DNA of 64,000 nucleotides, from the NCBI GenBank assembly GCA_963514005.1, contig OY740788.1:38192001-38256000 (forward strand), in the 5' to 3' direction. This document shows, in pieces, positions 11,714 through 57,188 of this stretch. A program made the translations under genes and the position numbers. A model generated the notes under the pieces. That model did not search any database. It was given only the letters and a program-made list of their open reading frames with translations, and was not told the origin of the DNA. Within the stretch, counting starts at the first letter, position 1. Every line of letters starts with the position of its first letter. Source of the DNA: Raja brachyura. Its lineage: Eukaryota.

Positions 11714-12037
11714 TTATAGCAAGATTTGCGTTGGAGACGCCGGGGCACTTGGTTCGGGCGTGAGGCTTTGCTGTGGTACTGCAGTACTTAAGGGACCGAG
11801 ACCCGATCTAATGACTGTGGTCTTGAGATCTGCTGCGTCCTTCACATCGATGTCTTTCTCGTTCAGGTCAATGGATTCAGAGTCACTTTTCTCACTGTCG
11901 CTCTGATTCTCCCTCACTCGCTGTTCCCCCTCCACAGAGGCTGGCTTCTGCACTGCTTCCTTCTCCTTATCCTTCTGCGCCTGAGCTTCCTTCGAGTGCC
12001 TCCACTTCATCCGCCGGTTTTGGAACCACACCTTCAC
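11714..12037 (-). CDS. HLX: HLX coding exon 4 (helix 3 and C-terminus)
   Basis: TAG|GTG acceptor; VKVWFQNRRMKWRHSKEAQAQKDKEKE...; TAA stop at 11714. Spliced CDS 466+165+185+324 = 1140 nt = 379 aa plus stop. Confidence 0.97.
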   Translation of the reverse strand: MKVWFQNRRMKWRHSKEAQAQKDKEKEAVQKPASVEGEQRVRENQSDSEKSDSESIDLNEKDIDVKDAADLKTTVIRSGLGPLSTAVPQQSLTPEPSAPASPTQILL

Positions 12038-12596
12038 CTAACGAGAGAAGAGCAAAAAGTCAGCCACTTACAAAAGAAACGCTTCTTAATAAAAAAAAAA
12101 CAACGTTCTGCGCATAGATTCGTTGTTTCCTTCCCGTCTGCTCAGCCCGTAGCACAAGACCGGTTTCAGCTTCAGAGGAAGGCCCTTGCGTGTGCCCGCG
12201 TTACAATACACTGCCTTGGTTTTTGTATAAGTTACCACTTCCTCTATGCGAAGAGCTTTATAACTCCATAAAGCAGTGCGGTCACCCTTTAGCAATTTCA
12301 AGAGAGCTGCATTTCACCTTTATTAATAGGATATGGCACTGTCCACGCAAATAATCAAATGGTGGGACACTAACTTCAGGTCAACAGCACATATGAAAAC
12401 ACACCCCAAATTGGATTCTTCACTTTACTGCTGTGCTCACGGCGATTTACTCGCTGTTTGATTTTGAATTGCCTTCCTCCACTTTTATATTGCATTTTTG
12501 TAACATTTTTTTTGTTTCTTTCATACCGTCGCTGCTGATAAATTTCCGGGTCGATTTATTGCATTGAATTAATTTCTGCTTTAATTTAACACTAAC

Positions 12597-12781
12597 CTGT
12601 GCATCTGTCAACCCCAGCATCGCCGCCAGTTGCTTCCGGTCAGGTTTAGTCACATACTTCTGAATCTCAAATCTTTTCTCGAGACCCTTTCTCTGCAGAT
12701 TAGAGAATACGGCTCTGGACCAAGACCGCTTCCTTTTGTACGTCTGTGGCATTGTGTCCTTCGTTAGAACAGCGTAAGGCC
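12597..12781 (-). CDS. HLX: HLX coding exon 3 (homeodomain helices 1-2 and start of helix 3)
   Basis: CAG|GG acceptor, CAG|GTTAGT donor; 185 nt. Encodes [61 protein letters not shown], the HLX homeodomain. Confidence 0.97.
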
Positions 12782-13369
12782 CTGCTAGTTAAAATGAAGC
12801 GTTGCATCAGAGTTAATGTTGCCAAGTTCTGTCCTACTTCTACAACAATTCAAAGCTTTTTGTTGTGCTTAGAATACGATGCCTAATGTATTTAAAGTTT
12901 ACCGATGGCTAATAATTAGAACGAGTAATGTCTTTTGGGCTATTTTCGGGAGTCAGGAACTTAATTGTGCAGTTGGACAGTTGCGCTATTGCAAACCGAA
13001 AGAGCGCTGCTTTTAAGCGCGTGTCACTCTGCGTGTCTTTATATATAACTCATCGGTTGGAATCACCTTCAGAATATTGTTGCATTGCACTACATGCAGA
13101 GTTGCAATGGCTGGAATCATTAATTTATTGTTGTAATAAATCACAAAATAGACGTTAAATAGGCCAGAAATGGGTTAAAAGGCCTGCGGATCCCATGAAC
13201 TTATTGAGAGGTGACGTTAACCTTGTTATTCTCAGATTTATTCAGTTCGTTTTATGAGATTGACTGTGGAATACACACATGCCTTCTAAAGTGTAGATAT
13301 TTTAACTGGAGCGGCTGATGTAGATTTTATTTTATGTGTGGCGAAAATTGGCGAATTAAGGCTATTAAC

Positions 13370-13534
13370 CTGGAAAAGAATCCTGATAATGTTGCTGGTT
13401 CGAGCTTCTGGAGTTCAAAACAGAGGGAGGCTCACCAAGTCCAGGGTCCAGCGACGCAAAAAACTGGTTGGCAGAACTGTGCACGGAGAGGTGGATTCCA
13501 GGCCGCCGACTTGGGCCCATGAGAGAGGTGAGAT
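13370..13534 (-). CDS. HLX: HLX coding exon 2
   Basis: Acceptor ttgttgcAG|AT, donor CCAG|GTTAAT; 165 nt, phase 1-1. Translates (D)LTSLMGPSRRPGIHLSVHSSANQFFASLDPGLGEPPSVLNSRSSNQQHYQDSFP(G), matching HLX exon 2 motifs QFFASLDP and QDxFPG. This frame is not in the ORF track. Confidence 0.92.
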
Positions 13535-13971
13535 CTGCAACAATAAACGGGGAACAGGGTATGTGGGCATGCTGCTGGCAGATAGGGTCGTCTTAAGTTC
13601 AGTCCTGTTCATTCATAAAACAATAGCTATCTTAACTCTCACTGATATGGGTCGTGCTATCCGAAACATCCACTTAGCAATTAAGATGAAACTTGTAATG
13701 CAGAGACACTGACAATGGCAAAACGCACCACCGTTGTGCATTTGACTGACTCCTGTAACTTCGGTCGTTACATCCCAAGCAATCCGCCCACACGCTTAGC
13801 ACACACGCAAATTAATTGCATGAGCAACGACAAAAACTGATGGTAAACAGAGCGAGGTTTCCCATCAATTTCCCAAGCAATTATAGCAGACGTTACATGG
13901 TGAAATGAGCGTGTCATTTTGATGCAGCATTGCTGTTGATGCCGAGAGAGTTTGTTCGTAGCTTGTCTTAC

Positions 13972-14437
13972 CTCGTAAAGTGTTGCATTCCTTGATTTTA
14001 AAGTCAGTATCGGCGGACAGGATGCGGTCAATGCCGAACTTAAGGTCCTTGCTGGAGGGCGCGGGAAGCTGATGCACCGAGCCGGCTGCCAGCTGAATCC
14101 GGGGCGACGAAGTGCAGATGGCCGGCGCTCGAAGGTAGGGTGACGCCGGCGAAGGTCTCTGAGCGAAGCCGCCCATATGCTCCGGGGCGACGGGCGTGGG
14201 GCGCAGAGGGGAGCCCGACGGCTGTAAGCTGTGGTGTCCGCTCATGTGAGCTACGATGGCCGATGATCCAGCCAGAGACGGTGGGCCGGTCGGCATGTTC
14301 TCGCTGTCGCTGAGATGCAGAATGTCCGCGATGCAAAACGAAGGCTTCTTCACCGAATCCAACAAGCCATTCGAGCAGTAGGCAGACCAGAGACTGAAAT
14401 TACTGGCGTAATACGGAGCTAGTCCTGCGGTATACAT
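13972..14437 (-). CDS. HLX: HLX (H2.0-like homeobox) coding exon 1
   Basis: ATG at 14437 begins MYTAGLAPYYASNFSLWSAY, the HLX N-terminus. Two eh1-like motifs (FCIADIL, FGIDRIL). Ends at phase-1 donor G|GTAAGA; 466 nt. Confidence 0.95.
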
Positions 14438-14619
14438 TGTGCAATCACCCCCCTCGCTTTGTTTTTTTTTTAACAACGAGGATGCAAATACGAAAGATAC
14501 GATCTAAAATAGACTGTTTTGGGGGGAGGGGAAGGGAACTTGACTTTGCGAACTCGAAACTTTCCTAAAACTCATCTGCACATTTGGCAGACTTCAAGTA
14601 GGGCTTGGGAAGAACTTGC

Positions 14620-34221: not shown

Positions 34222-36263
34222 AGTAAGATTAAGCAAGAACTTACCAGTTCCTCTTTATTTTATGAGGAGTTGCGATGAGGGATTTTGTGAAGACCCCACC
34301 AGTCTTCGAGCACGGACCCTCCTGGATCACGGGTTTTCCTGACTTCCGGGTAGCGTCTTTTGAACGAAATTGAAAGGATAACAGTACTGCATTAATAAAC
34401 TTTATGGTAAAATCATGGGGTTTCTAATGCGCGACATTCTTCAAAGCAGCGGTGTGGAATCACAGATAACAACAATGACTGAAGATAGTAAGATTAAAGA
34501 CACTCGACTATACCAGTTGACCTTATGATAGAGGGTTGGGAGCCGAGGGCACGAAATCCCTGCAGTCTGGCAGCCTGACCCGGTGGTGAGCCGGTACCTC
34601 CTGCTCCTGCAGGGCTCCCCAACTTCCCAGCAGATCCATCACCGGCCCGCAATCTAGCAGGTTACCCCCGGCGGCATGTCGATGCCTTCCGCATCAGCGG
34701 GGAACGACCTGGGCGCAGCTCTCCCCCTGGTCTGCCCTCTGGTGACCTGCATAGTAGGAGAGACAGAACGTGCCGCCGAGCAGGTCACACATTTACGCAC
34801 CTTTGCTCCACTGTCCCTATGCTTAGGTGACAGTGGTAGGGAGTCAGGGTCTTGCCTACCCTGCTACCGCGCGGTGCTCCTACCACTTTGCGGCTCCATG
34901 GTCAGCTGTGGTGGAGAGACGGGTTCTGGCTGCGCAGGACTCCCCGATTTCCGCATTCTTATCCCGGTCCGCAGAGCGGGTGCTGACGGTGTTGTGGGCA
35001 GCTCCGGGAATGGTGGCCGCTGACTCCCATCCGAAGTCCCATGGCCCTTGGAGGCATGCTTCGATGCCTTCATTCTGGTCTCCATCCATCGTTTCCGTAA
35101 GCAAAGTCTAGTACAGAAGCTCAGCAACTCAAGGTTAGTATCTTACCTGAGGGTCTTTAAGAAGCATCCGGTGGAGGAGCGCACTCTCCCCCCGCCCTCC
35201 CCCCAGCTCCAATGGTGACCAGACTCTCGTGCAGGACCATAGACTGCCGCTAACGGCAAGCCTCCCGCCTGTGTAGTGAGTCGGGCCCTGGCTCTGTCTT
35301 ACTACCTCCATAGGGTAGCATAGCCATCAGTCCGCGGTATTCCTGCGGCCTGCGGCGTTGAGTCGGAGCTCTTGCTCTGCCTTCGCTACCCGCGAATGGC
35401 AGTCTTCGAGCACGGACCCTCCTGGATCACGGGTTTTCCTGACTTCCGGGTAGCGTCTTTTGAACGAAATTGAAAGGATAACAGTACTGCATTAATAAAC
35501 TTTATGGTAAAATCATGGGGTTTCTAATTTCTTTCCCACACCTATAGGAGAAAGATGAACAATTACACAATGAAAAAATCCCTTTAGCTTTGCCTCTCCT
35601 TGGCTTCCGGGCAGGCAAGAGGTTGGAACAGGTGTAAAGATGCAAAGTTCCCTTGGGCAGTTCCCAGCCAGCTGGCACACTCCCACTTTACAATGCTGCA
35701 CTCATGCCGACAGTCCGCAGTGACCCTGTGGGCTGCGGTGTAGAGTCGGACTGCTGCTCTGCCCCATTACCTGGTTAATGTAGACAGCCCGCAGTATCCC
35801 TGCAGGCTGTGGAGTAGAGTCAGGGCTGCTGCTCTGCTGTTGCTCACTCCGAACGGCAAGCCTGCAAGCCCCACTCCTTTAATAATGTCGTCAGCCCGCA
35901 GTGTCCTGTGGGCTGCGGTGTAGAGTCGTGACTGCTGCTCTGCCGTCGCTTGCTTCATACAGCGAGCCTGCAAGCCCCACTCCTTTACACATGCCATCAG
36001 CCCGCAGTGTCCTGTGGGCTGCGGTGTAAAGTCGGGCTGCCTCTGCCGTCCTCCGACCGGCGAGTGTGTGAGCCCGGACCCTCCTGGTCAATGGGCTCTT
36101 CCCGACTCCAGTCTGTTGGTGCCGCCGCTGACTGTTGCGGCAGTCAGTTTCGAGGCGGCCTGGAGACCCTGACCAGAGTCACCTGAAAATAAAAAGGACT
36201 GCAGGTTAGTTTCCTTACCTGCAGGTCCCCGCAGTAGAGGAGCACGTGACTCCGAAGTAAAAT
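34219..36263 (-). mobile_element. Second, internally deleted DIRS-like element joined head-to-tail to the first
   Basis: 34221-34560 repeats the 29863-30090 terminus. 36243-36263 (CACGTGACTCCGAAGTAAAAT) repeats the 34201-34221 terminus. GC-rich interior with no RT or recombinase motif seen. Confidence 0.75.
35712..36050. repeat. Degenerate 70-110-bp tandem repeats inside the second DIRS element
   Basis: Four recurrences of CAGCCCGCAGTGTCCTGTGGGCTGCGGTGTAGAGTCGG-like sequence. Confidence 0.75.
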
Positions 36264-38455: not shown

Positions 38456-39280
38456 ACTGCACGATACGATAGAACTTTATTTATCCCAGGAGGGAAATTG
38501 ATCTTCCATCAGTCATAAAACATACCAGTCATCTGTATTATGCAGACAATCAAATGTCATGTTATGTATTTGGGTGCTTGGAGGCTCGGACACGGGAGTA
38601 AATTAACAAGCTTCTTTATTCTAAGGCGCCACCTTGATTCTCCCTTTTTCCTCCCCTTTTAAGTCAATTTGACCTGCATGGTATATGCTCTTTATTTAAC
38701 ATATCATTGGTTAATACACTGTTGCACCATTGTATTATTACAGTCATCTCACAATACATCCTCATAACTGTAATAATCATATCTAGACCACAGTAATATG
38801 CTCTTTACCTAAAATATAATTAATTAATACACTGTTGCAAAATGGTATTATTACATTCATCTTACAATACATCCTCCTAACTGTAATAATCCTATCTAAA
38901 CCAGCACATACTTTCTTCATTCCACCCATCTACCGTAAACCAAATACATTACCCCTTGCTTTATGTATTATCATTTTCCGTTCCTTTATGTGTAAATTAT
39001 GAACACTTTCTAATCGCTCTAGCTCTGCCTGTATCTCTGCTTCTTCCCTTTTAAATGTCCTAATTAAATTTGCAAATTTCTTCCTGTTCCTGATATTTTG
39101 CGTTTAATTTTCTAGTTCATGTATTTGCTTCGTTTTCCTCTTTGTAGGTGGGATCTGACCCATGGCTACAAGTTTTTGTTTTCTAGCAGCTTCCTCTGTT
39201 GTTCAATTTCCATTTGCTTCGTATTTTTCTCTTCTTGTGGTTTAATGAGATTCTGCAATGCATAATCATTCGTCCATTGC

Positions 39281-41134
39281 TCAGTGAAGTAGGCTCCATG
39301 CTGGACTATAGTGAAGTGTCCTAATTGCAATCGGTTCTGCATACTTTTGTCTTGACCGACAGGCCTTTTCCATTAGCAGCTTTTTACTCATCGTCACACA
39401 TTTATTTAACCTTTCTTTGTATAATTTAAGCCTTTTCTGTTGTTCATCTATTTGTCTACTTAAGTCACCTTTCTGGTTCTTATTCAAGAAGTAGGATTTA
39501 TATTGTCTTTGCAATGCAACACTGGCTTTGATTTGTGCTCTGTGTAGTTTTTTTGCTTCATAAGCAAGGTAGTGAGACTGCACTATAACTGCTGTATAAT
39601 TCAGTTTGAGGAAGTCTTTCCTAGATCGTTTAAGCCTTTTGTATCATTTCAGCCTTTTCTGTTGTGCCTCTGTTTGTCTTCTTAAGTCTTTCCTATACCA
39701 ACTCATACGGAGTACTGACTGCACTTTTATAGTAGCCCTCTTTTGCTTAACCCACTGCCTAACCACCATACTCTTGTAGGCGTTAAAGAAGGAACTGCAG
39801 ATGCTGGAGAATCGAGGGTTACACAAAAAAGCTGGAGAAACTCAGCGGGTGCAGCAGCATCTAAGGAGCGAAGGAGATAGGCGACGTTTCGGGTCGAGAC
39901 CCTTCTTCAGACTGGTCAGGGACCATACTCTTGTAGGCAGCCTGAATGGTAATAGTTGCATACCTCATTGACTGACATTACACAAACTGTGAATGCCCTA
40001 TTTCGCATCCTTTGTACCATCTCTCGATCGAAATGACTGCTTGTCACATAGCTCTGTAACCACGGTATGAAGCTTGCAGAGTGACTACAGCCCCCTTTTG
40101 CATCAAGAAATGTTTTCTTGTAATGCACATCATTATGAATGACTTAATATGGCATGCTGCCTTGATTTTCTCAACCAATACTCTGGCTCTGATCCCGCAG
40201 TAGAAGGCCTGAATACAAATCGCTTTTCTCAAACTATTATAATGTCTCACTTGGACATCACTTATCTGGTAAGCTCTGTATCGTTGCTGTACCGCAATAG
40301 CAGACCAGCGTAGTTTCTTGAAATACTGACGCTGTTTATACATCTGATAATAAGTCTGTATGACTTTGGCAGATTTGTGCATGCACCGCAATTGCTTTCG
40401 AACAACCATTCCTCAGTAGGCAGCCTGAAGTAGCACAACACTGCTGTGTACCTTCATGTAAGTCTTACGATCACTTTCCATTTGAAGGTGTGCCCTATAA
40501 TGGGTTTGTACTATTATAGCTACCGATCTCATTGCCTTGTATAGACGGTATACTCTGTGCATTCTAAATGCTGCTTGTATTACCGTTGTTGCCTTCTGTT
40601 TGTTCCGGATCTCTCTCCATACCTTCATACCGCTGAATGCAGCTTGAATAGTTAGGGTTGCCCTCTGGATGGCAATGTCCCTTTGCATTTGACTTTTGTC
40701 CCTTTGCCTTTTACCTTTGGCCTTTTGCACTTGATCTTCATCACTTGGCACTTGACTTTTGTCACTTTGTCCTTGACTTTTGTCACTCTCCCCTTGACTT
40801 TTGTCGCTTTGCACCTCCCGTTTGTCCTTTGAGGGATTCCCTGCCTCTTTAGTTCAGGCTCCATGCCTCTGGATGCCCTTGGAGATTTTGGTGAGAAATG
40901 AGCCATTAATGCCTCCTTACACTCCTCGTACGTTTTATCAGTGGGCTTTGCTGGCCGCAGACATGTACGTAAGGTGTGATGACTCTCTCTTCCTCAGCCT
41001 AATATGAACCATGATGTCTTCTTCTCTCCAGTGATACCATTGGAAATGAACGAAGCCTCCAAGACTTCAGTCCATTTCTCAAAATTACACCCAGTATCTA
41101 ACTGGGGCAACTTTCCTACCATTTGAAAAGCCAT
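39281..41134 (-). pseudogene. Chimeric gag / ASPM-like IQ reading frame of copy 1, disrupted
   Basis: ORF pieces 40652-40906, 40413-40814, 40044-40409, 39644-39826 and 39281-39583 are collinear with copy 2. The stops and frameshifts compared are at different positions from those in copy 2. Confidence 0.85.
39782..39921 (-). mobile_element. Penelope pLTR fragment inserted into the ASPM-like cargo
   Basis: 17-bp direct repeat ACCATACTCTTGTAGGC at 39765-39781 and 39922-39938; single copy at the empty site in copy 2; intact hammerhead core at 39883-39910. Confidence 0.88.
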
Positions 41135-44100
41135 GCTACCTGTTGCTATTCAGGTGCCCTATATTCTGTTCTCTCACTGTGTTTTCTGCCTTGGACTTAA
41201 TCCTTTTCATTCTAAGAAATTATCCAGCCCACTGACGATTACTTAATCTTATAACAATAGATTTATCCTAATAGCCAACATTTCAGGTTAATAGCCATTT
41301 AGAACATTTTAAACCATATTCCTTCTATGCACACAGATTTACTGTTAATAACTGTGACCAATGCATTACATCAAAACCAGTGCTTTTATTGTGAAGGATT
41401 TCACCGGTCCTGCTTTTACTTTGAAGGATTCCACCAGTCCAGCTTCTCGGCCTGTGAACTCTGGTGCATCCTCGACCTCTCGGATTCACCAGAGCTTCTG
41501 CCAAGGACACTGTTGCTTTTGCTGCTGGCCTCACCGGACCTCCGCTGCTATCGCTGGCTCAGCCGTTGCTGTTGCCTCCGCTGGCTTGCTGCCAAGTCGA
41601 CTCCTGCTGCTCCGCTGACTTGCCCTCCCGCTGGCTCCACAGCCCTCCCGGCTGCTACTGGACCCGCTGCTCAGCTCGTCACTGGCTCCCGTGGACGCCC
41701 TGCAGAAGGTGAGTCACTGCTCGTTACTGCTGCTTGTCCCCGCTGCTCCAAGCATCGGGACTGTGCCCCGTCATCGGGGGCTGGGTAAGTGCTGTGTCCC
41801 GCTTCTCTTGCGCGGACCCGCTTCTCTCTCGACAGGCTTTCTCCCACGACCGGGCTTTCTCGGCTCTCGGCTTCTCTCGCGGGGCCTGGTCCGCTTTTAC
41901 GCTCACAGTCGGGCTGACTCTGCTCCCGACCGAGCTTTGTCTACTTTCTCCCCCCACCGGGCTGACTGCTTCCGGCCGGGCTGAAGACTCGGCTTTTGTC
42001 GGTGGCTTTTCCGGACATGTCCGTGGCCTACACAGTACTAGGCCCTCACCCGACGTCTGTGGCTGCTACTGGGGCGGCCGTGGGCTACATGGTTCTCTTT
42101 CGTCGGTGGCTTCTTCAGACCTGCCCGTGGCCTACACGGTACTAGGCCCTCACCCGACATCTGTGGCTGCTGCTTGGGCCTGGCTGTGGGCTGCACAGCC
42201 CTGGAAAACGTTCCAGGTAAGTTGAGACCGTCGCTCCTCGCTTCCAGCTGCGCTCGGTGACCCTTACTGCCCGCTTGTCTTCCTTACGCTCTTGCTTCCC
42301 TGTGCTCTTGCTTCCCGTTCCGACCTTTTTTTTTGGTTCCAATTCAAAACCATTTGGCGCCAAATATTTTTGCTTGGTGCTGTTCCACTATGTTTCCAAA
42401 TACAACCTCTATTTTAACTCGTTATCGTTTTTCTTGGCTGTCCTTGTTCTTTTCTTCTTTGTTCTTTTATCCTCGTCACCAATTGTTATGTATTTGGGTG
42501 CTTGGAACAGACTTTAATAAGGCTCGGACACGGGAGTAAAGTAACAAGCGTCTTTATTCCAGGACGCCACCTTGAGTCTCCCACGCGCATGCGTACTTGC
42601 ACAAGACATCACATATGCTAATTATATCACATACCTAACACTCCTCCCCCTTTAACTTGGAGGCAGGTAACACCATTTTTATTACATACCTAACACGTCA
42701 CATGTTTTAAAACATAGACATTTGCTATTGGACCGAAAGACCTGAAATTTGTGTTGGGTCTATTGAGGCTAACTGCAGTTACTTGTCAGCAACTACTGGT
42801 ATGTGTACAAGCACAGTTAAAAGTGAACATTTAAAAAGTGCTATCTTCCAGTGTTTCACAGCAAACATTAATGAGATGGCAAGAAGTTCAGGTATGGATG
42901 AACTTTTCTTCTAATAAAGAAATCTGAAAAATGGTCCTTGATTGTACGAGGTATAAATCTTAACATATATTATATCATATCATATCATCATATCTATCTA
43001 TCTATATACTTTTAAAACTGTGTGTGTGTGTGTGTGTGTGTCTGTCTGATTTGTGTGTTGCGTGTGTTTATTTGTGTCAGATTTTTGACCTTTGATTTCA
43101 TGGTTCGCCAAAACCACACGCTCAAACTCCGAGAATTTTTCCATTTCGTAGGACATTACACTTTTACATTCACGGATCCACTCCTCATTACATTTAGGCA
43201 TTTTTATGTACACATTTTTGAATAAAATCCTCCCCCCCCCCCCCCCCCACACTCCCCCCCATTTTATGGCCTCCTGCTGGCCAGCCACCATAATGGCTGC
43301 TGCTGCTGTCCACCAAAAACGCCGCCATATTTCTTCTTTCGCTGGAGACTTTCGCTGCTGCCTCCAGGCTCTCCTCCTCCACCCCTCACGTTCGGGGACC
43401 AGACCCAACAGGTCTGCACTTGGTCTAGTATCAATTAAAACTGTGTGTGTGTATGTCATTTTGCCTTTGAAACTTATCTCCTCGAAAACCAGACGCAAAA
43501 ACGTGGAGATTTATACAGTTTCGGTAGGGATTAAAGGCGCAGAAAGATCAAGAAAGTTCTGCAGAACAAAGATTCTACAGCTTCGTTCCGCTATAGCGTC
43601 TTTGTTCTACAGATCTTGGGGCAGCGACTCCTCACGCGCTGAATCTTCTCCTCATAAGTTCTGCAGATCAGTGGATAGGGCGGTTATGGTGTAAAAGGAG
43701 CAAATTAAAAATATTAATATAATATCAAGGGAGGTTGTTAGCGTGTGTGCGGGGGGGTAGTTAGTGTGTGTGCCGCCACCCCCCCCCCCAGCCCCCACCC
43801 CTCCCCTCCCCCACACCCACATGCTGGGGGAACTGACCCAACGGGTCTGCACTTGCTCTAGTAACTATTAAAACTCTTGTTGGTTTGTAACGGATTCCAT
43901 TTTGCGAATATTCGTTTAAGGCGTTTGCGGATTTATTCCTCCACCCTTTGCCGTAACGGAGAAATATTTACATATTCCTGTACAGTTTTTCCTCCTCCAC
44001 ATTTTGTTTTAAAAATTGGAAAATTTGGTTATAAATTTCCCTGCTTTTTTAGTAAAAAAACATTACAAAAATTCAAAATCAAACTGCTGCATGAGTCACA

Positions 44101-44168: not shown

Positions 44169-44261
44169 GGGGTGGGAGATTGGAACCTTCACATGGTCCC
44201 ATGAATGCAATCAACCTGGCGTGCACAATCAAATAAAATCAAATAGAGCAAGTTGTCCTAC
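44169..44261 (+). mobile_element. HDV-ribozyme short element, copy C (internally deleted, 3' truncated), inside a Helitron-like unit
   Basis: GGGGTGGGAGATTGGAACCTTCACATGGTCC...TGCAATCAACCTGGCGTGCACAA...GTTGTCCTAC aligns to copies A and B. Confidence 0.75.
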
Positions 44262-46363
44262 CCCCCTCCCTCTCTCCACCCCCTCCCTCTCCCCCCCTAC
44301 CTCTACCCCTCCAATCTCTACCCCTCCTATCCTATCCTGCCCCTCTCCTCCACCCTCCCCTCTCCTCCATCCCCTCCTCTTCTCCCCCATCCACCTCCCC
44401 CCTCCTCTTCTCTTCCCCTCCACCTCTCCCCCTCCTCTTCTCCCCATTCTCTTCTCTCCCCCTCCACCTCTCCCCTCCTTATCTCTACCCCCTCCAACCC
44501 CCTCTTCTCTCCCCCTCCAACTCTCCCCTTCCCCACTCCACCCTCTCCCTCACTCACCCCCTCCTCTCTCTCCCCCTCCCTCCCCTCTACTCTCTCTCTC
44601 CTCTACTCTCTCTCTGTCCCACCTAATCTCTCACTCTCCCCTCTAATCTCTCTCTCCCCCTCCCTCCCACCCCCTGCCTTTCCCCCACTCCCCCTTCTCT
44701 CTCTCCCCCCTTCGCTCTCTCCCCTCCTCTCTCTCCCCCCTTCTCTCCCTCTTCCCCCTTCTCTCTCTCTCCCCCTTCTCTCTCCCCCTCCTCTCTCTCC
44801 CCTCCACTCCCTCCCTCTCTCACCCCCTCCAATCTCTCTCCACCCCTCCCCCTCTCCCCCCTCCCCCTCCTCTCTCCTCCCCTCTTCCCCTCCCCTTACC
44901 ATCTCCCCCTCCCCCTCTCTCCCCTTCCCCTCTCTCTCATCCCCCACCCCTCTCCTCTCCCCTCCCTCCTCTACCACCCCCCTTTCCCCTACCTGTCTCC
45001 CCTTCACCCTTCCCGCTCTCCTCCCCTCCCCATCCTCATCACTCTCTCTCCCATCCCCCTCCCCCTTCCAGCCCCTCTCCTCCCCCTCCCCACTCTCTCA
45101 CCCATCTCCCCCTACCCCTCCCCCCTCCCCCCTCTCCCCTCTCCTCTCCCACTCCCTCCCTCACCCCTCTCTCCTCACTCCTCTCTCCCCCTCTCTCTTC
45201 ACCCGACTCTCTTCCCCCTTCTCTCCATTCCCTATTCTCCTCACCCCTCTCTCCTCACCCATCCATCATCACCCCTCTCCGCCCCCTCTCCTCACCCCTC
45301 TCTCCAGCTCCTCCCCCTCTCCCTCCTCCACTCCCTACCACTCCTCCTACCCCCTCTCTCCCCAACCCTCCCTCCCCTTACACCCCTCCCCCACCCCTCT
45401 CCCCCTCCCTCCCCACTTCCCCTTCTCATCCCCCTCTGCCCCCTCCCCCACCCGTCTCTCCCCGCACCCCCCTCTCCTTCCCCACTACCTCCTCTCTCCC
45501 CCTTCCCCATCCCATCTCTCCACCCCTCTCCCACCACTCTCACATCCCCTCCCCCACCCATCTCTCCCCCCTCTTCCCCCTCCAACCCCCCTACCACTCT
45601 CCCCTTCCCCCTCTCCATGCTCTCCTCCCCCTCCCCATCCCCCACTCTCTCCCTTCCCCTCCCCAATCTCTCCCCATCTCCACCCTTCCTCCTCCCCCTC
45701 TCCTCCCCCTCTATCCTCCCCCCCCCTCTCCTCCTCCTTGTTCCTCACCCCTCTCCCCTCCTCCACCCACCTCTCTCCACCCACATCCACCCTCCTTCTC
45801 CCCTCCCCTCCTCCACCCACCTCCACACTCCTCCACCCCCAGCTCTCCCCTCCTCCACCCCCCTCTATCCCCCACCAAACCCCTCCCCCCTCCAACCCCC
45901 CTCTCCCCTCCTCCACCCCCTATACCCCCCACCAAACCCCCTCTCCCTCCTCCAACCCCCTCTCCCCTCCTCCAACCCCCTCTCCCCTCCTCCAACCCCC
46001 TCTCCCCTCCTCCAATCCCTTCTCCCCCCCTCCAACCCCCCATTCCCCTCCTCCACCCCCTCTACCCGCCACCAAACCCCCTCTCCCTCCTCCAACCCCC
46101 TCTCCTCCAACCCCCACTCCCCTCTACCCCCTCCCTTTCCCTCCCTCTTCCCCCTCACTTCCCCCCTCTCTCCCCACTCCCCCTCCTCCGTCTCCCCTCA
46201 TCTCTCCCCCCTCCCCCCTCCCCTCCTCTTTCCTCCTCTCTCCCCACCTCCTCTCCCCACCTCTCCGCTCCCCTCAACTCTCTCCCCCCCTCCTCCCCTC
46301 CCCTCTCTCTCTCCCCCTCCTCCTCCCCATCCCCCTCCCACATCCCCCTCCCCCCCCCCCCCC
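44262..46363. repeat. 2.1-kb C/T-rich low-complexity tract with a ~20-bp minisatellite near 45880-46110
   Basis: Almost no G on the + strand; CCTCCTCCAACCCCCTCTCC units. Confidence 0.95.
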
Positions 46364-46901
46364 CGTGTGTGTGTGAGATAGTTAGTTTGCATGTGAAGCC
46401 ACAGCACCCCCCCCCCCCCCCCCCCGCAACCGCACATTAAGGCATTGAGGGGACTGGACACAGCGGTCTCCCCTCCCTCCCCTCTCCCCACCCCATCTCC
46501 CCCTACTCCCCTCTCACCCCCCTTCTACCCCCTCCCCCCCCATGTGTGTGTGAGGGGTGGTTAGTGTGCATGTTGGTCTAGTGAGTTTTAAATGATTTAC
46601 TAAATTGTAATCAATATTTAACCTTTCTGCTCCATAACACAAATAATTTCATATATTTTGGTTGTTATTCATTCATAATTATTTAAAGCATTTGAGCTTT
46701 TAAAAATATTACTTTTACGTTTCCTCTTAACGTTTCACGTTCTTTCAATTTGGGTACAAATCCCAATCTATATTTTGTGCTCTGTAAAACGTATGGTTTA
46801 AAAACAAATTGTGCATTGGTTTATTTTTGGTTGGAGGTCAGTTACATTCTTCGGTGTGATCATCTACTGGGTCAGCTCGGTGTCCTCACTGTTATTAAAT
46901 A

Positions 46902-53847: not shown

Positions 53848-55044
53848 TAAGGATTATGGGAATATTTGATCAACGTTTTAATGGTTTTCTGGAAATACTG
53901 TGCAGAGAATAGCATTTATTTCAGGGCTCAATCATATCTTCCCTATAACAAATAACTTACTTCACCACAGTTATCTGAAATTAGACTTGAATTGGATTAA
54001 ATTGCCTGGGTATAATTGCCTGGTGTGATGTATGTGATATAATTAGCATATGTTATGTCTTGTGTGAGGGGACGCATGCGCTGGGGGAGATTCAAGGCGG
54101 CGTCCTAGAATAAAGAAGCTTGTTAGTTTACTCCTGTATCTGAGTGTTCTTTTAAGTCAGTTCCAAGCACCCAAATACACTACAATTGGCGACGAGGATG
54201 GGATGGAGTTTGTGAACTCACCTGCAGGACTGTTTTGCAACAAGCAGGATTGTTTAACAGTTTAAACAATAGATATGGAGTTGTGTTGCAGTTGTTTGCG
54301 AGCTGGACATGAGAGGCCTGCAGATCCCTCTAAGCATGGGACTGTAGTTTAAAACATCAGCTGTACAAGTCAGCGAGTTTGTCAGGCTATCTCTATGTTG
54401 TGTCTACGTGGCAAGAGGTCGTCCTTCGGATTGTTACACATTTTAGACTGAGTTTTTTCTGTCGAATTCCTCAAGCTGAATAATCTTTGTACAGCTAAGT
54501 TTTAGGTGAATTGTTACACCAAAACACACAAGGATAACGAGGCAACGAGGATAAAAGAACAGAAAAGAACAAAGAACAAGGGCTGTCAAGAGAAAAAAAA
54601 GTTAAAAAGAAGAGGTTGTGTTTGGAAACAAAGTGGAACGGCACCAAGCAAAAAGATTTGGTGCCAAATGGTTTTGAATTGGCGCCAAAGAAAAGAAAGG
54701 TCAGAACAGGAAGCAAGGAAAACAAGTGGGGCAGTAAGTAAGTGTCACTGAAGACACTTGAATGTGAATGTAATGCGTGGGCACAGTAAAAGCAGGACTG
54801 TTTGAATGTAATGCATTGGTCACTGTTATTAATAGTAAATCTGGGTGCATAGAAGGAATATGGTTTAAAATATTCTAGTTGGCTATTAACATGAAATGTT
54901 GGTTAATAGTATAAATCCATTATTATAAGAATTAGTAATAGTCAATAGGCTGGATCACTTCTTAGCGTGTAAAAGGATTAAGTTTAGTGCAGAAAACACA
55001 GTGAGAGAACAGAACATAGTGCATCTGAATAGCAACAGGGTAAC

Positions 55045-56523
55045 ATGGCTTTTCAAATTGTAGGAAAGGTGCCCTAGTTAGATTCTGGGTGTAATTTTGA
55101 GAAATGGACCAAAGTCTTGAGGGCTTGTTTCATTTCCAATGATATCGCTGCAGAGGATAAGAAGAGAGCATGGTTCATATTAGGCTTAGGAAAAGAGGGT
55201 TATCAGACCTTACATAGGTCACTGCAGCCAGCAACTCCCACAGATAAAATGTACGAGGAGTGTCAGGAGGCATTAATGGCTAATTTCTCACCAAAACCTC
55301 CAAGGGCATCCAGAGGCAAGGAGCCTGAACTAAAGAGGGCAGGGAGTCCCTCAAAGGACAAAAGTCAAGGGCAAAGTGACAAAAGTCAAGGGCAAAGTGA
55401 CAAAAGTCAAGTGCCAAGTGACAAAGGTCAATTGGAAAAGGCCAAAGGTCAAAGGCAAAGGGACATTGCCATCCAGAGGGCAACCCTAACTATTCAAGCT
55501 GCATTCAGGGGTATGAAGGTACGGAGAGAGATCCAGAACAAACAGAAGGCAGCAACAGTAATACAAACAGCATTTAGAAGGCACAGAGTATACCATCCAT
55601 ACAGGGCAATGCGATTGGCAGCTATATTTGGTCAAAACCCATTATAGGGCACACCTTCAAATGGAAAGTGATCATAAGACTTACATGAAGGTACACAGCA
55701 GCTTTGTACTGCTTCAGGCTGCCTACCGAGGAATGCTTGTTCGAAAGCAATTGCGGGGCATGCACAAATCTGCCAAGTCATACAGACTTATTATCAGATG
55801 CATAAACAGCGTCAGTATTTCAAGAAACTACGCTGGTCTGCTATTGCGGTACAGCAACGATACAGAGCTTGCCAGATAAGTGATGTCCAAGTGAGACATT
55901 ATAATAGTTTGAGAAAAGCAGTGGTTTGTATTCAGGCCTTTTACCGTGGGATTAAAGCCAGAGGATTGGTTGAGAAAATCAAGGCAGCATGCCATATTAA
56001 GTCAGTCTTAATGATGCGCATTACAAGAAAACATTTCTTGATGCAAAAGGCGGCTGTAGTCACTCTGCAAGCTTCATACCATGGTTACCGATCAAGGGTA
56101 CGCTACAGAGCTATGCGACAAGCAGTCATTTCGATCCAGAGATGGTACAAAGCATGCAATATGGGGCATTCAAAGTTTGTGCAATATCAGTCAATGGGGT
56201 ATGCAACCATTACCATTCAGGCTGCCTACAAGGGTATGGTGGTTAGGCAGTGGATTAAGCAAAAGAGGGCTACTGTAAAAGTTCAGTCAGTACTTCGTAT
56301 GAGTTGGTATAGGAAAGACCTAAGGAGACAAACAGAGGCTCAACAGAAAAGGCTGAAACAATACAAAAGGCTTAAACGATATAGGAAAGACTTCTTCAAA
56401 CTGAAATATACAACAGTTGTAGTGCAGTCTCACTACCATGCTTATGCAGTAAGAAAACTATACAGAGTGCAAATCTGCAATACAACAGAGCAAAGCCATT
56501 GTTGTATTGCAAAGACAATATAG
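55045..56523 (+). pseudogene. Chimeric gag N-terminus / (DKSQGQS)n linker / ASPM-like IQ-repeat reading frame, disrupted
   Basis: MAFQIVGKVP*LDSG...PATPTDKMYEECQEALMANFSPKP is gag-like. From ~55465 tandem IQ motifs follow (IQAAFRGMKVR, IQTAFRRH, LQAAYRG, IQAFYRG, IQRWYK), resembling the large IQ exon of ASPM. Stop at 55075; frameshifts near 55630 and 55775. Confidence 0.85.
55355..55462 (+). repeat. 21-bp tandem repeat (GACAAAAGTCAAGGGCAAAGT) encoding a DKSQGQS linker
   Basis: About 5 degenerate units; homologous array at ~40676-40812 in copy 1. Confidence 0.85.
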
Positions 56524-57188
56524 ATCCTACTTCTTGATGAATAACCAGAAAGGTGATTTAAGAAGACAAATAGATGAAACAGAGAGAATGTTAACTTTTG
56601 CAGAATATCATGAACAGGAAGAAATCTGCAAATTAGATTAGAATATTTAAAAAGGGAAGAGCCAGAGATACAGGTAGAGTTAGAGTGATTAGAAAGAGTG
56701 CGCAATTTACACAAAGGGAACGGAAAAGGATAACACATAAAGCAAGGGGTAATGTACGTGGTTTAAGGAAGAGGAGTGGAATGAAAAATTATGTGCTAAG
56801 TTTAGATACGATTATTACAGTTATGCGGATGTAATGTAAGATGACTGTAATAATATAATTTTGCAAGTTACTCAATTATATTTAATGTAAACGGAATGGT
56901 GTTATCCGCCTCCAAGTTAAAGGGGGAGCAGTGTGGTGTGTATTATATAAATGGTGTTACCTGCCTCCAAGTTAAAGGGGGAGCAGTGTTATGTATGTGA
57001 TATAATTAGCATATGTTATGTCTTGTGCGAGGGGACGCATGCGCTGGGGGAGACTCAAGGCGGCGTCATAGAATAAAGAAGCTTGTTAGTTTACTCTTGT
57101 ATCTGAGTGTTCTTTTAAGTCAGTTCCAAGCACCCAAATACACTACACCTGGGTATAATTATGAAATATCAGTTAAAGTCAGGAAAAG

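Follow-up and report, generated by a model that had tools for sequence, protein, structure and literature searches.

The window analysed here, 64,000 bases of contig OY740788.1 (38,192,001 to 38,256,000), contains two inverted copies of a long terminal repeat (LTR) retrotransposon, both of them interrupted by stops and frameshifts. The element joins the start of gag to pieces of two host genes, ASPM and TLK2, which function in cell division. The question raised by this locus is whether the ancestral element carried one open chimeric frame, and whether that frame mattered to it. An earlier note on this DNA had proposed an open Gag-linker-IQ protein of about 500 amino acids or more, and had suggested examining frame continuity over all copies, selection on residues and divergence of the LTRs. 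Column-by-column counts over the copies in the same genome showed that the open frame was likely kept in the active lineages while the protein sequence hardly mattered. From the protein matches, the host is inferred to be a cartilaginous fish.

Two independent insertions in the window

Self-comparison of the window placed the two copies at about 38.6-42.7 kb and 54.0-57.1 kb. Copy 1 lies on the minus strand (38560-42695) and copy 2 on the plus strand (54024-57147), with a spacing of 11.3 kb. Their identity is 91% over 1,519 aligned bases of the coding region. The target-site duplications differ between the copies and match at 4 of 5 bases in copy 1 and 5 of 5 in copy 2. Homology of the flanks, which would have spoken for duplication of a larger segment, was looked for and consisted of dispersed repeats only, none of them adjoining the insertion junctions; a comparison of 129 flanks from across the family gave no collinear match. 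Segmental duplication of the two copies was ruled out by their distinct target sites and non-homologous flanks, and the proposal that the cargo had moved after its capture is borne out. Copy 2 landed in a pre-existing 14-base tandem duplication (54005-54023 and 57148-57160), so its flanking repeat appears longer than 5 bases.

All six lesions named earlier are real, and each is absent at the aligned site of the other copy. They comprise stops at 40996 and 40415 and a one-base frameshift near 40845 in copy 1, and a stop at 55075 and frameshifts near 55626 and 55774 in copy 2. Copy 1 possesses further stops at 40046, 39980 and 39646, a shifted pair of 18- and 4-base insertions or deletions (indels) near 39360, and a 157-base insertion like a short interspersed element (SINE) at 39938-39782. 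Copy 2 possesses in addition a 16-base insertion near 56467 and has lost about 310 bases of its TLK2 piece. Non-shared lesions in two copies are weak evidence alone, since they are expected in any decayed family, and the inference therefore rests on the family-wide counts.

Conservation of the open frame across the family

In the 2.7-Gb genome, a search with one part of the element yielded 251 candidate places and a search with another part 238; 40 were scored for each. A 22-base junction motif had 107 matches in the genome and none for its reversed control, giving a family of at least 107 copies. One hundred places were fetched, 97 of them from 100 listed motif matches and three from other searches, together with a further 20 divergent Gag matches; the fetched motif matches do not include the two copies of the window or one tandem neighbour. 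The alignment comprised 110 stretches, among them both copies of the window and 8 of these 20 Gag matches, and 109 of the stretches contain the ASPM piece. Two near-duplicates were left out of later counts. About 110 of the roughly 250 candidate places were thus examined.

The chimeric frame extends from the start codon to the usual stop over a median of 1,962 bases (46 copies), or about 650 codons. The length proposed earlier was too short because the frame continues into TLK2: Gag, linker and IQ parts are present as described, and the coiled coils of TLK2 form a third part that had been overlooked. The junction between ASPM and TLK2 is in frame in 75 of 79 copies and an internal duplication in 54 of 75, while the distance from gag to ASPM is in frame in 49 of 94, its commonest lengths being 21 bases apart.

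Stops and frameshifts were counted over 109 natural copies, a shared change being a non-CpG change present in at least six copies. No column with a majority of stops was found in 100 Gag codons or in 289 and 53 ASPM codons, and only one in 178 TLK2 codons, at codon 165 (40 of 69 copies). The ancestral frame was thus open, as had been proposed, through the first 164 TLK2 codons. Recurrent stops elsewhere were scattered over the tree (clade purity at most 0.40), as is expected of decay after insertion. Private changes were neutral, with 2,191 non-synonymous changes, 707 synonymous changes and 192 stops against 2,176, 703 and 211 expected (ratio 1.00), and the test is therefore calibrated. Shared stops numbered 2 where 10.7 were expected (P=0.001), and 0 where 4.6 were expected when at least ten copies were required (P=0.008). 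Stops common to at least 20 copies were present in 11 of 992 triplets of the two unread frames and in none of 531 in the read frame (P=0.011). Shared indels of non-triplet length were similarly absent from the coding part (1,613 bases), while the untranslated regions and LTRs (1,569 bases) had 11 of them (P=0.0008); this contrast weakens to P=0.005 once the first shift in TLK2, described below, is counted.

Compensating frameshifts in the 3' part of TLK2

From TLK2 codon 100 onwards shared frameshifts are present, the first of them in 67 of 77 copies. This first shift leads into the longest stretch of an alternative frame that is free of stops. In the three large subfamilies the shared shifts have cancelled out by about codon 144-148. 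Copies without private damage stay open to base 487-492 of the 534 TLK2 bases, or beyond the end. Of the copies which do not read base 389, 26 of 29 retain a latent stop there; in the two groups which read it, the stop is present in 1 of 9 copies and, having been deleted, in 0 of 23. The subfamily which reads bases 397 and 403 has lost the latent stops there by deletion, whereas 8-9 of 9 and 21-22 of 23 copies in the non-reading groups retain them. Upstream frames that are never read served as the control, and 45 of their 53 latent stops were still present in most copies. Recombination between elements may blur the order of the shifts. About 45 codons of the third coiled-coil region are out-of-frame residues in all large subfamilies; such residues were tolerated in the 3' part of TLK2 while stops were not. 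Use of this part as a non-coding control after the stop was dropped, the frame staying open there.

Selection on individual residues

The suggestion that the frame mattered to the element is upheld for stops and frameshifts, and it does not extend to a working Gag-IQ protein, the residues being without clear purifying selection. The ratio of shared non-synonymous to synonymous changes was 0.92 for at least six copies and 0.73 for at least ten, both non-significant, and constraint on amino acids is not evident from it. Separate ratios were 0.68-1.18 for Gag and 0.97-0.99 for ASPM. The masters differ from the host by 7-9%. In TLK2 codons 1-99 the element has 13 non-synonymous differences from the host, whose own piece has the same protein sequence as TLK2 of skate and bamboo shark. 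A seemingly significant comparison of this ratio with singletons was replaced by a stratified test, singletons being enriched for transversions. Neither mark of a functional chimeric gene, an intact copy or purifying selection, was found (0 of 72 near-complete copies intact; ratio 0.73-0.92, not significant).

Origin of the captured host sequences

The IQ stretch of the element matches ASPM proteins, and the host ASPM gene lies on contig C10. The ASPM cargo of about 1.05 kb corresponds to the last part of a host exon of 1,999 codons (88% identity); as it comes from within a single exon it is uninformative on intron loss. The linker of 21-base repeats is an amplified piece from the start of the ASPM segment, and in some copies (such as L162 and L164) it has grown to many hundreds of bases. 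The giant host exon itself (G000:C10:10603230-10609226, L035) contains at least four tandem units of 657 bases (219 residues), about 85% alike to the cargo, which suggests a recent IQ expansion in this lineage.

The TLK2 cargo of about 0.53 kb is 86% identical to shark and skate TLK2 and matches PDB 5o0y. It corresponds to human residues of about 227-406 in the isoform compared and does not include the kinase domain. It is composed of five exons of the host TLK2 gene on contig C34 (91-94%) joined at their splice sites, with four introns absent, and was therefore captured from spliced mRNA. TLK1 was ruled out as the source (73-82% against 88-94% for TLK2). Short similarities were seen by eye at the gag/ASPM, ASPM/TLK2 and TLK2/tail junctions. 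The zinc-knuckle region is confined to the six most divergent, and oldest, of 110 copies, which keep the original switch from gag to ASPM at a common QQR-coding stretch; in later subfamilies the knuckles were lost in frame and the linker expanded.

Parent element and classification

Twelve of the 20 divergent Gag matches have no cargo, and several of these represent parent-type elements. The parent copies share with the cargo element the LTR (72-88% identity), the primer site, the 5' region, the first 254 bases of gag (gag start 71-78%) and the 3' tail (72-84%). The parent possesses gag, zinc knuckle, protease, reverse transcriptase, RNase H and integrase in the order of Gypsy elements, though all copies are decayed; Pfam matches follow the order protease, reverse transcriptase, RNase H and integrase along parent copies L148, L151, L152 and L154. 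Its length of about 5.6 kb leaves no room for env. The cargo element has no pol between gag and tail while retaining the cis signals of the parent. It has lost about 300 bases of gag, in frame with respect to parent copy L159, which is open there, together with the whole stretch that begins at the knuckles and ends with pol. The pattern of the tRNA end complementary to the primer site had 21 genomic matches, and all three that were checked were tRNA-Ser(GCT). A purine tract precedes the 3' LTR, and the LTRs are direct repeats with TG...CA ends. The family is thus a non-autonomous Gypsy LTR retrotransposon with a parent gag-pol family in the same genome.

The nearest named proteins to the parent reverse transcriptase are 'K02A2.6-like', and the parent may belong to the Mag clade. 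The same reverse transcriptase (L155:6572-7603) is 79% identical over 195 residues to a protein of the sea urchin Lytechinus pictus, most other matches being at 42-52%; this likeness hints at horizontal transfer of the parent family, or at contamination of that record.

Dispersal, age and decay of the family

Both LTRs were found within the fetched stretch in 41 of 109 copies. Among 39 two-LTR copies, 5-base target duplications at the standard boundary were exact in 13 and matched at 4 of 5 bases in 7 more. LTR pairs of at least 140 bases (39 copies) gave a median Kimura two-parameter distance of 0.058 with quartiles of 0.04-0.09, copy 2 having 0.032. The age implied by this distance depends on the rate: 3.9e-10 per year, a substitution rate given for crocodilians in the accessible part of its source (PMC4299795), leads to a median of about 75 million years, and a shark per-generation mutation rate (PMC10587355, likewise seen in part) to far more, and no age was adopted. 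The family consists of successive subfamilies of differing age and its tree is star-like; subfamily labels assigned with the LTR comparison were unreliable in four copies with large deletions and were set aside. None of 72 near-complete copies was intact, with 1-14 breaks each (mean 6.25). The longest frame from the start codon was 318 codons among 80 copies and the longest open frame 355 amino acids among 150 Gag matches.

Some copies are DNA duplicates: contig C19 has three that are almost identical, and C1 has a tandem array. The latter (L166, G000:C1:42.70-42.71 Mb) has three head-to-tail duplicates of 6.4 kb, 99% identical where compared, each with the coding part of the element. Public runs under five organism codes contain 0.26-0.35 of the words of copy 2, and reads of four runs covered a full-length natural copy in 30 of 30 bins for three runs and in 22 of 30 for one. 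The family is not confined to one sample, though one run may be the source of the present assembly.

Weighing of the explanations

In this family most of gag and all of pol have given way to a segment of the ASPM IQ exon and to spliced TLK2 mRNA, likely by template switches. It is reasonably probable that active lineages were selected for one long open frame because near-full translation would protect the RNA or aid its packaging. Capture would have taken place by template switching during reverse transcription at short in-frame similarities, the element would be mobilised in trans by the Gag-Pol of the parent, and selection would act among master copies. The selected trait would be the passage of ribosomes to within about 250-450 bases of the 3' LTR rather than any function of ASPM or TLK2, the host pieces being mainly stop-free filler from abundant mRNAs. 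A likely cause would be escape from nonsense-mediated decay. Behind a stop early in the frame, the 3' tail would measure up to about 2.3 kb, compared with about 0.25-0.45 kb plus the LTR for the open frame, and retroviral RNAs with long 3' tails are described, in the part of the source available, as predicted targets of this decay unless shielded (PMC2925335). By analogy with the mouse element IAP 1-delta-1, a need for translation in cis would be the other likely cause; the available parts of the reports on that element describe an open fusion frame which aids its own transposition in cis (PMC6466679, PMC7411935).

Several observations weigh against this reading. An out-of-frame linker is present in 45 of 94 copies, more often than private indels alone would suggest, although no single shared event was evident in the type-B linkers inspected. 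Copy L112, whose frame ends at TLK2 base 397 in an inherited state, looks intermediate, though a single copy is only suggestive. In two younger groups 31 of 32 copies have the common stop at TLK2 codon 165, and modest shortening was thus tolerated. The 280 bases just upstream of the start codon have no shared non-triplet indel either, and the non-coding control is uneven and partly repeat-rich. Shared variants were set by frequency and not placed on a resolved tree. In-frame joins can also be favoured in the absence of selection when templates are switched from one coding sequence to another. Lastly, the ratio for TLK2 codons 1-99, a stretch with coiled-coil sequence in it, was 0.36 for at least ten copies (P=0.016, uncorrected) and 0.56 for at least six (P=0.057), and some selection at the protein level may be reflected in it.

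This low ratio, with 7 non-synonymous to 10 synonymous shared changes where 10.3 to 5.3 were expected, and the lack of any shared frameshift in the same 99 codons are what a functional fusion protein would leave. Its Gag start would join the helper particle in cis, the basic IQ stretch (20% lysine and arginine, isoelectric point 11.5) would replace the knuckles, kept only by the six oldest copies, as RNA binder, and the TLK2 coiled coils would dimerise or disturb the host TLKs. The portions available of the relevant reports describe dimerisation through coiled coil 1 of human TLK2 (PMC6023931), desilencing of repeats on loss of TLK (PMC7408502) and action in cis of the IAP 1-delta-1 fusion protein (PMC6466679). 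We consider such a function unlikely, though worth keeping in view. The Gag and ASPM ratios are near 1, the 13 non-synonymous changes in TLK2 codons 1-99 stand against a host piece without protein change relative to skate and bamboo shark, and the third coiled-coil region is read out of frame in all large subfamilies. Stops are so frequent in the other frames of ASPM and of TLK2 codons 1-99 that their density is sufficient by itself to explain the lack of shifts there. A bolder form, in which kinase-less TLK2 coiled coils fused to Gag and a basic ASPM rod would act as an anti-silencing protein, a dominant-negative decoy against TLK-dependent chromatin silencing of the host, is very doubtful.

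Near-neutral amino-acid change would also fit a frame that was merely inherited, captured in frame by a master lineage too short-lived to gain stops; a study of Drosophila, in the part of the paper available, gives 14 of 17 young LTR-mediated retrocopies as in frame and ascribes this to their youth (PMC5131818). The coding part has, however, accumulated 139 substitutions common to at least ten copies and 7-9% divergence from the host, stops did build up in the two unread frames, and latent stops were lost by subfamily along the path read. With P of about 0.001-0.01, inheritance without selection is largely refuted and appears quite improbable. The DNA duplicates on C19 and C1 and the limited share of candidate places examined leave a very small probability that the copies are passengers of one intact chimeric gene domesticated by the host, or segmental duplicates. 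Against this stand the breaks in every near-complete copy and the short longest frames, the succession of subfamilies of different age, the lack of matching flank pairs, and target-site matches of 4-5 of 5 bases in 20 of the 39 two-LTR copies.

Relation to known systems

In acutely transforming retroviruses such as E26 (gag-myb-ets), a defective genome which needs a helper has gag fused in frame to pieces of two host genes. The present family differs in that its parent has no envelope and in that there is no sign that the host domains kept their function. LTR-mediated retroposition in animals has been described (Tan et al. 2016, PMC5131818), and the available part of that work gives several common features: replacement of internal genes by partial mRNA, joining of several parent genes, further non-autonomous rounds and, as far as seen by eye here, short similarities at the switches. 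The cases described there are young or low in copy number, older ones mostly having loss-of-function changes, whereas more than 100 copies, several subfamilies and measurable selection for an open frame were found here.

In the maize LTR element Bs1, pieces of several unlinked host genes are likewise joined into a single hybrid frame, but, as far as the accessible text goes, Bs1 is a transcribed and translated chimeric gene of a plant (PMC13317346); the present family is from a vertebrate, every examined copy is broken and no clear amino-acid constraint is seen. Mouse IAP 1-delta-1 is also a non-autonomous LTR element, with an internally deleted open frame that, in the portions available, derives from its own gag and pol and aids retrotransposition in cis (PMC6466679, PMC7411935). 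In the family studied here the filler is of host mRNA, partly read in the wrong frame, and it is the evolutionary footprint of the open frame alone that was measured. Crocodilian endogenous retroviruses with KIT-ligand and nectin3 similarly multiplied with captured host mRNA in a vertebrate; from what is available of that report, they are retroviral, have 6-9 copies and keep a separate cargo frame under purifying selection (PMC4299795), in contrast to a Gypsy element with two cargos fused to gag and near-neutral residues. No report of this family, or of capture of ASPM or TLK2 by LTR elements, was found in a search whose coverage did not extend to most subscription journals, Repbase and Dfam. 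The mechanism of capture is already known; the family is remarkable for its size and for how cleanly the keeping of an open frame is separated from the drift of the protein.

Organisation of the two copies and neighbouring features

The features of both copies are given in the table below. A 55-base duplication consists of the purine tract and the start of the LTR (42641-42695 and 56895-57005), and some copies, including copy 1, start at the upstream purine tract and have longer LTRs.

Table. Annotated features of copies 1 and 2 (positions in the window)
Copy	Feature	Position	Strand
1	5' LTR, long form with extra unit of about 55 bases including duplicated polypurine tract	42484..42695	-
1	Shortened primer-binding site, tRNA-Ser GCT type	42469..42481	-
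1	5' untranslated region, parent-homologous, internal repeats	41135..42468	-
1	gag start, about 100 codons; stop 40996, frameshift near 40845	40839..41134	-
1	Linker of 21-base repeats, amplified from first bases of ASPM piece	40699..40838	-
1	ASPM IQ-repeat piece, 88% to host exon; stops 40415, 40046, 39980	39698..40698	-
1	SINE-like insertion, private, 17-base duplication on both sides	39782..39938	
1	Short TLK2 piece and second ASPM piece, in-frame duplication remnant; stop 39646	39466..39697	-
1	TLK2 coiled-coil piece, spliced: five host exons, no introns	38975..39468	-
1	Parent-derived 3' tail, purine tract, 5'-truncated 3' LTR (about 38560-38645)	38560..38974	-
2	5' LTR, 161 bases, TG...CA; 156/161 identical to 3' LTR	54024..54184	+
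2	Target duplication	54019-54023 and 57148-57152	
2	Primer-binding site, 18 bases, complementary to 3' end of host tRNA-Ser(GCT)	54187..54204	+
2	5' untranslated region, private deletion of about 0.9 kb	54205..55044	+
2	gag start; stop 55075	55045..55344	+
2	Linker of 21-base repeats	55345..55440	+
2	ASPM IQ-repeat piece, 88% to host exon; frameshifts near 55626 and 55774	55441..56307	+
2	Short TLK2 piece and second ASPM piece; 16-base insertion near 56467	56308..56555	+
2	TLK2 piece, private deletion of about 310 bases; subfamily stop 56686	56556..56726	+
2	Parent-derived 3' tail, doubled polypurine tract, 3' LTR (56987-57147)	56727..57147	+

Between the copies, at 44250-46550, lies about 2.3 kb of nearly pure C/T low-complexity sequence. 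Homeodomain matches revealed a multi-exon homeobox gene on the minus strand at 11714-14503, which resembles HLX; both elements are situated 24-43 kb upstream of it. A GC-rich block at 33-36 kb contains a perfect direct repeat of 129 bases (34300-34428 and 35400-35528), possibly a young split-repeat element, and has inverted matches to 29.9-30.2 kb. No Pfam match to this block was found in the four frames tested.

Significance of the family

A chimera of two host genes grew here into a large vertebrate family, which offers a rare separation of selection for an open frame from selection for a protein. The family purged stops, tolerated only those frameshifts which stayed open, and let its residues drift. 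For annotation, more than 100 ASPM-like and TLK2-like matches in this genome are to be taken as cargo of the element. If this reading is true, long frames in non-autonomous elements need not imply that the proteins are of use, and the spread of captured host sequences would be decided in part by RNA surveillance or by translation in cis.

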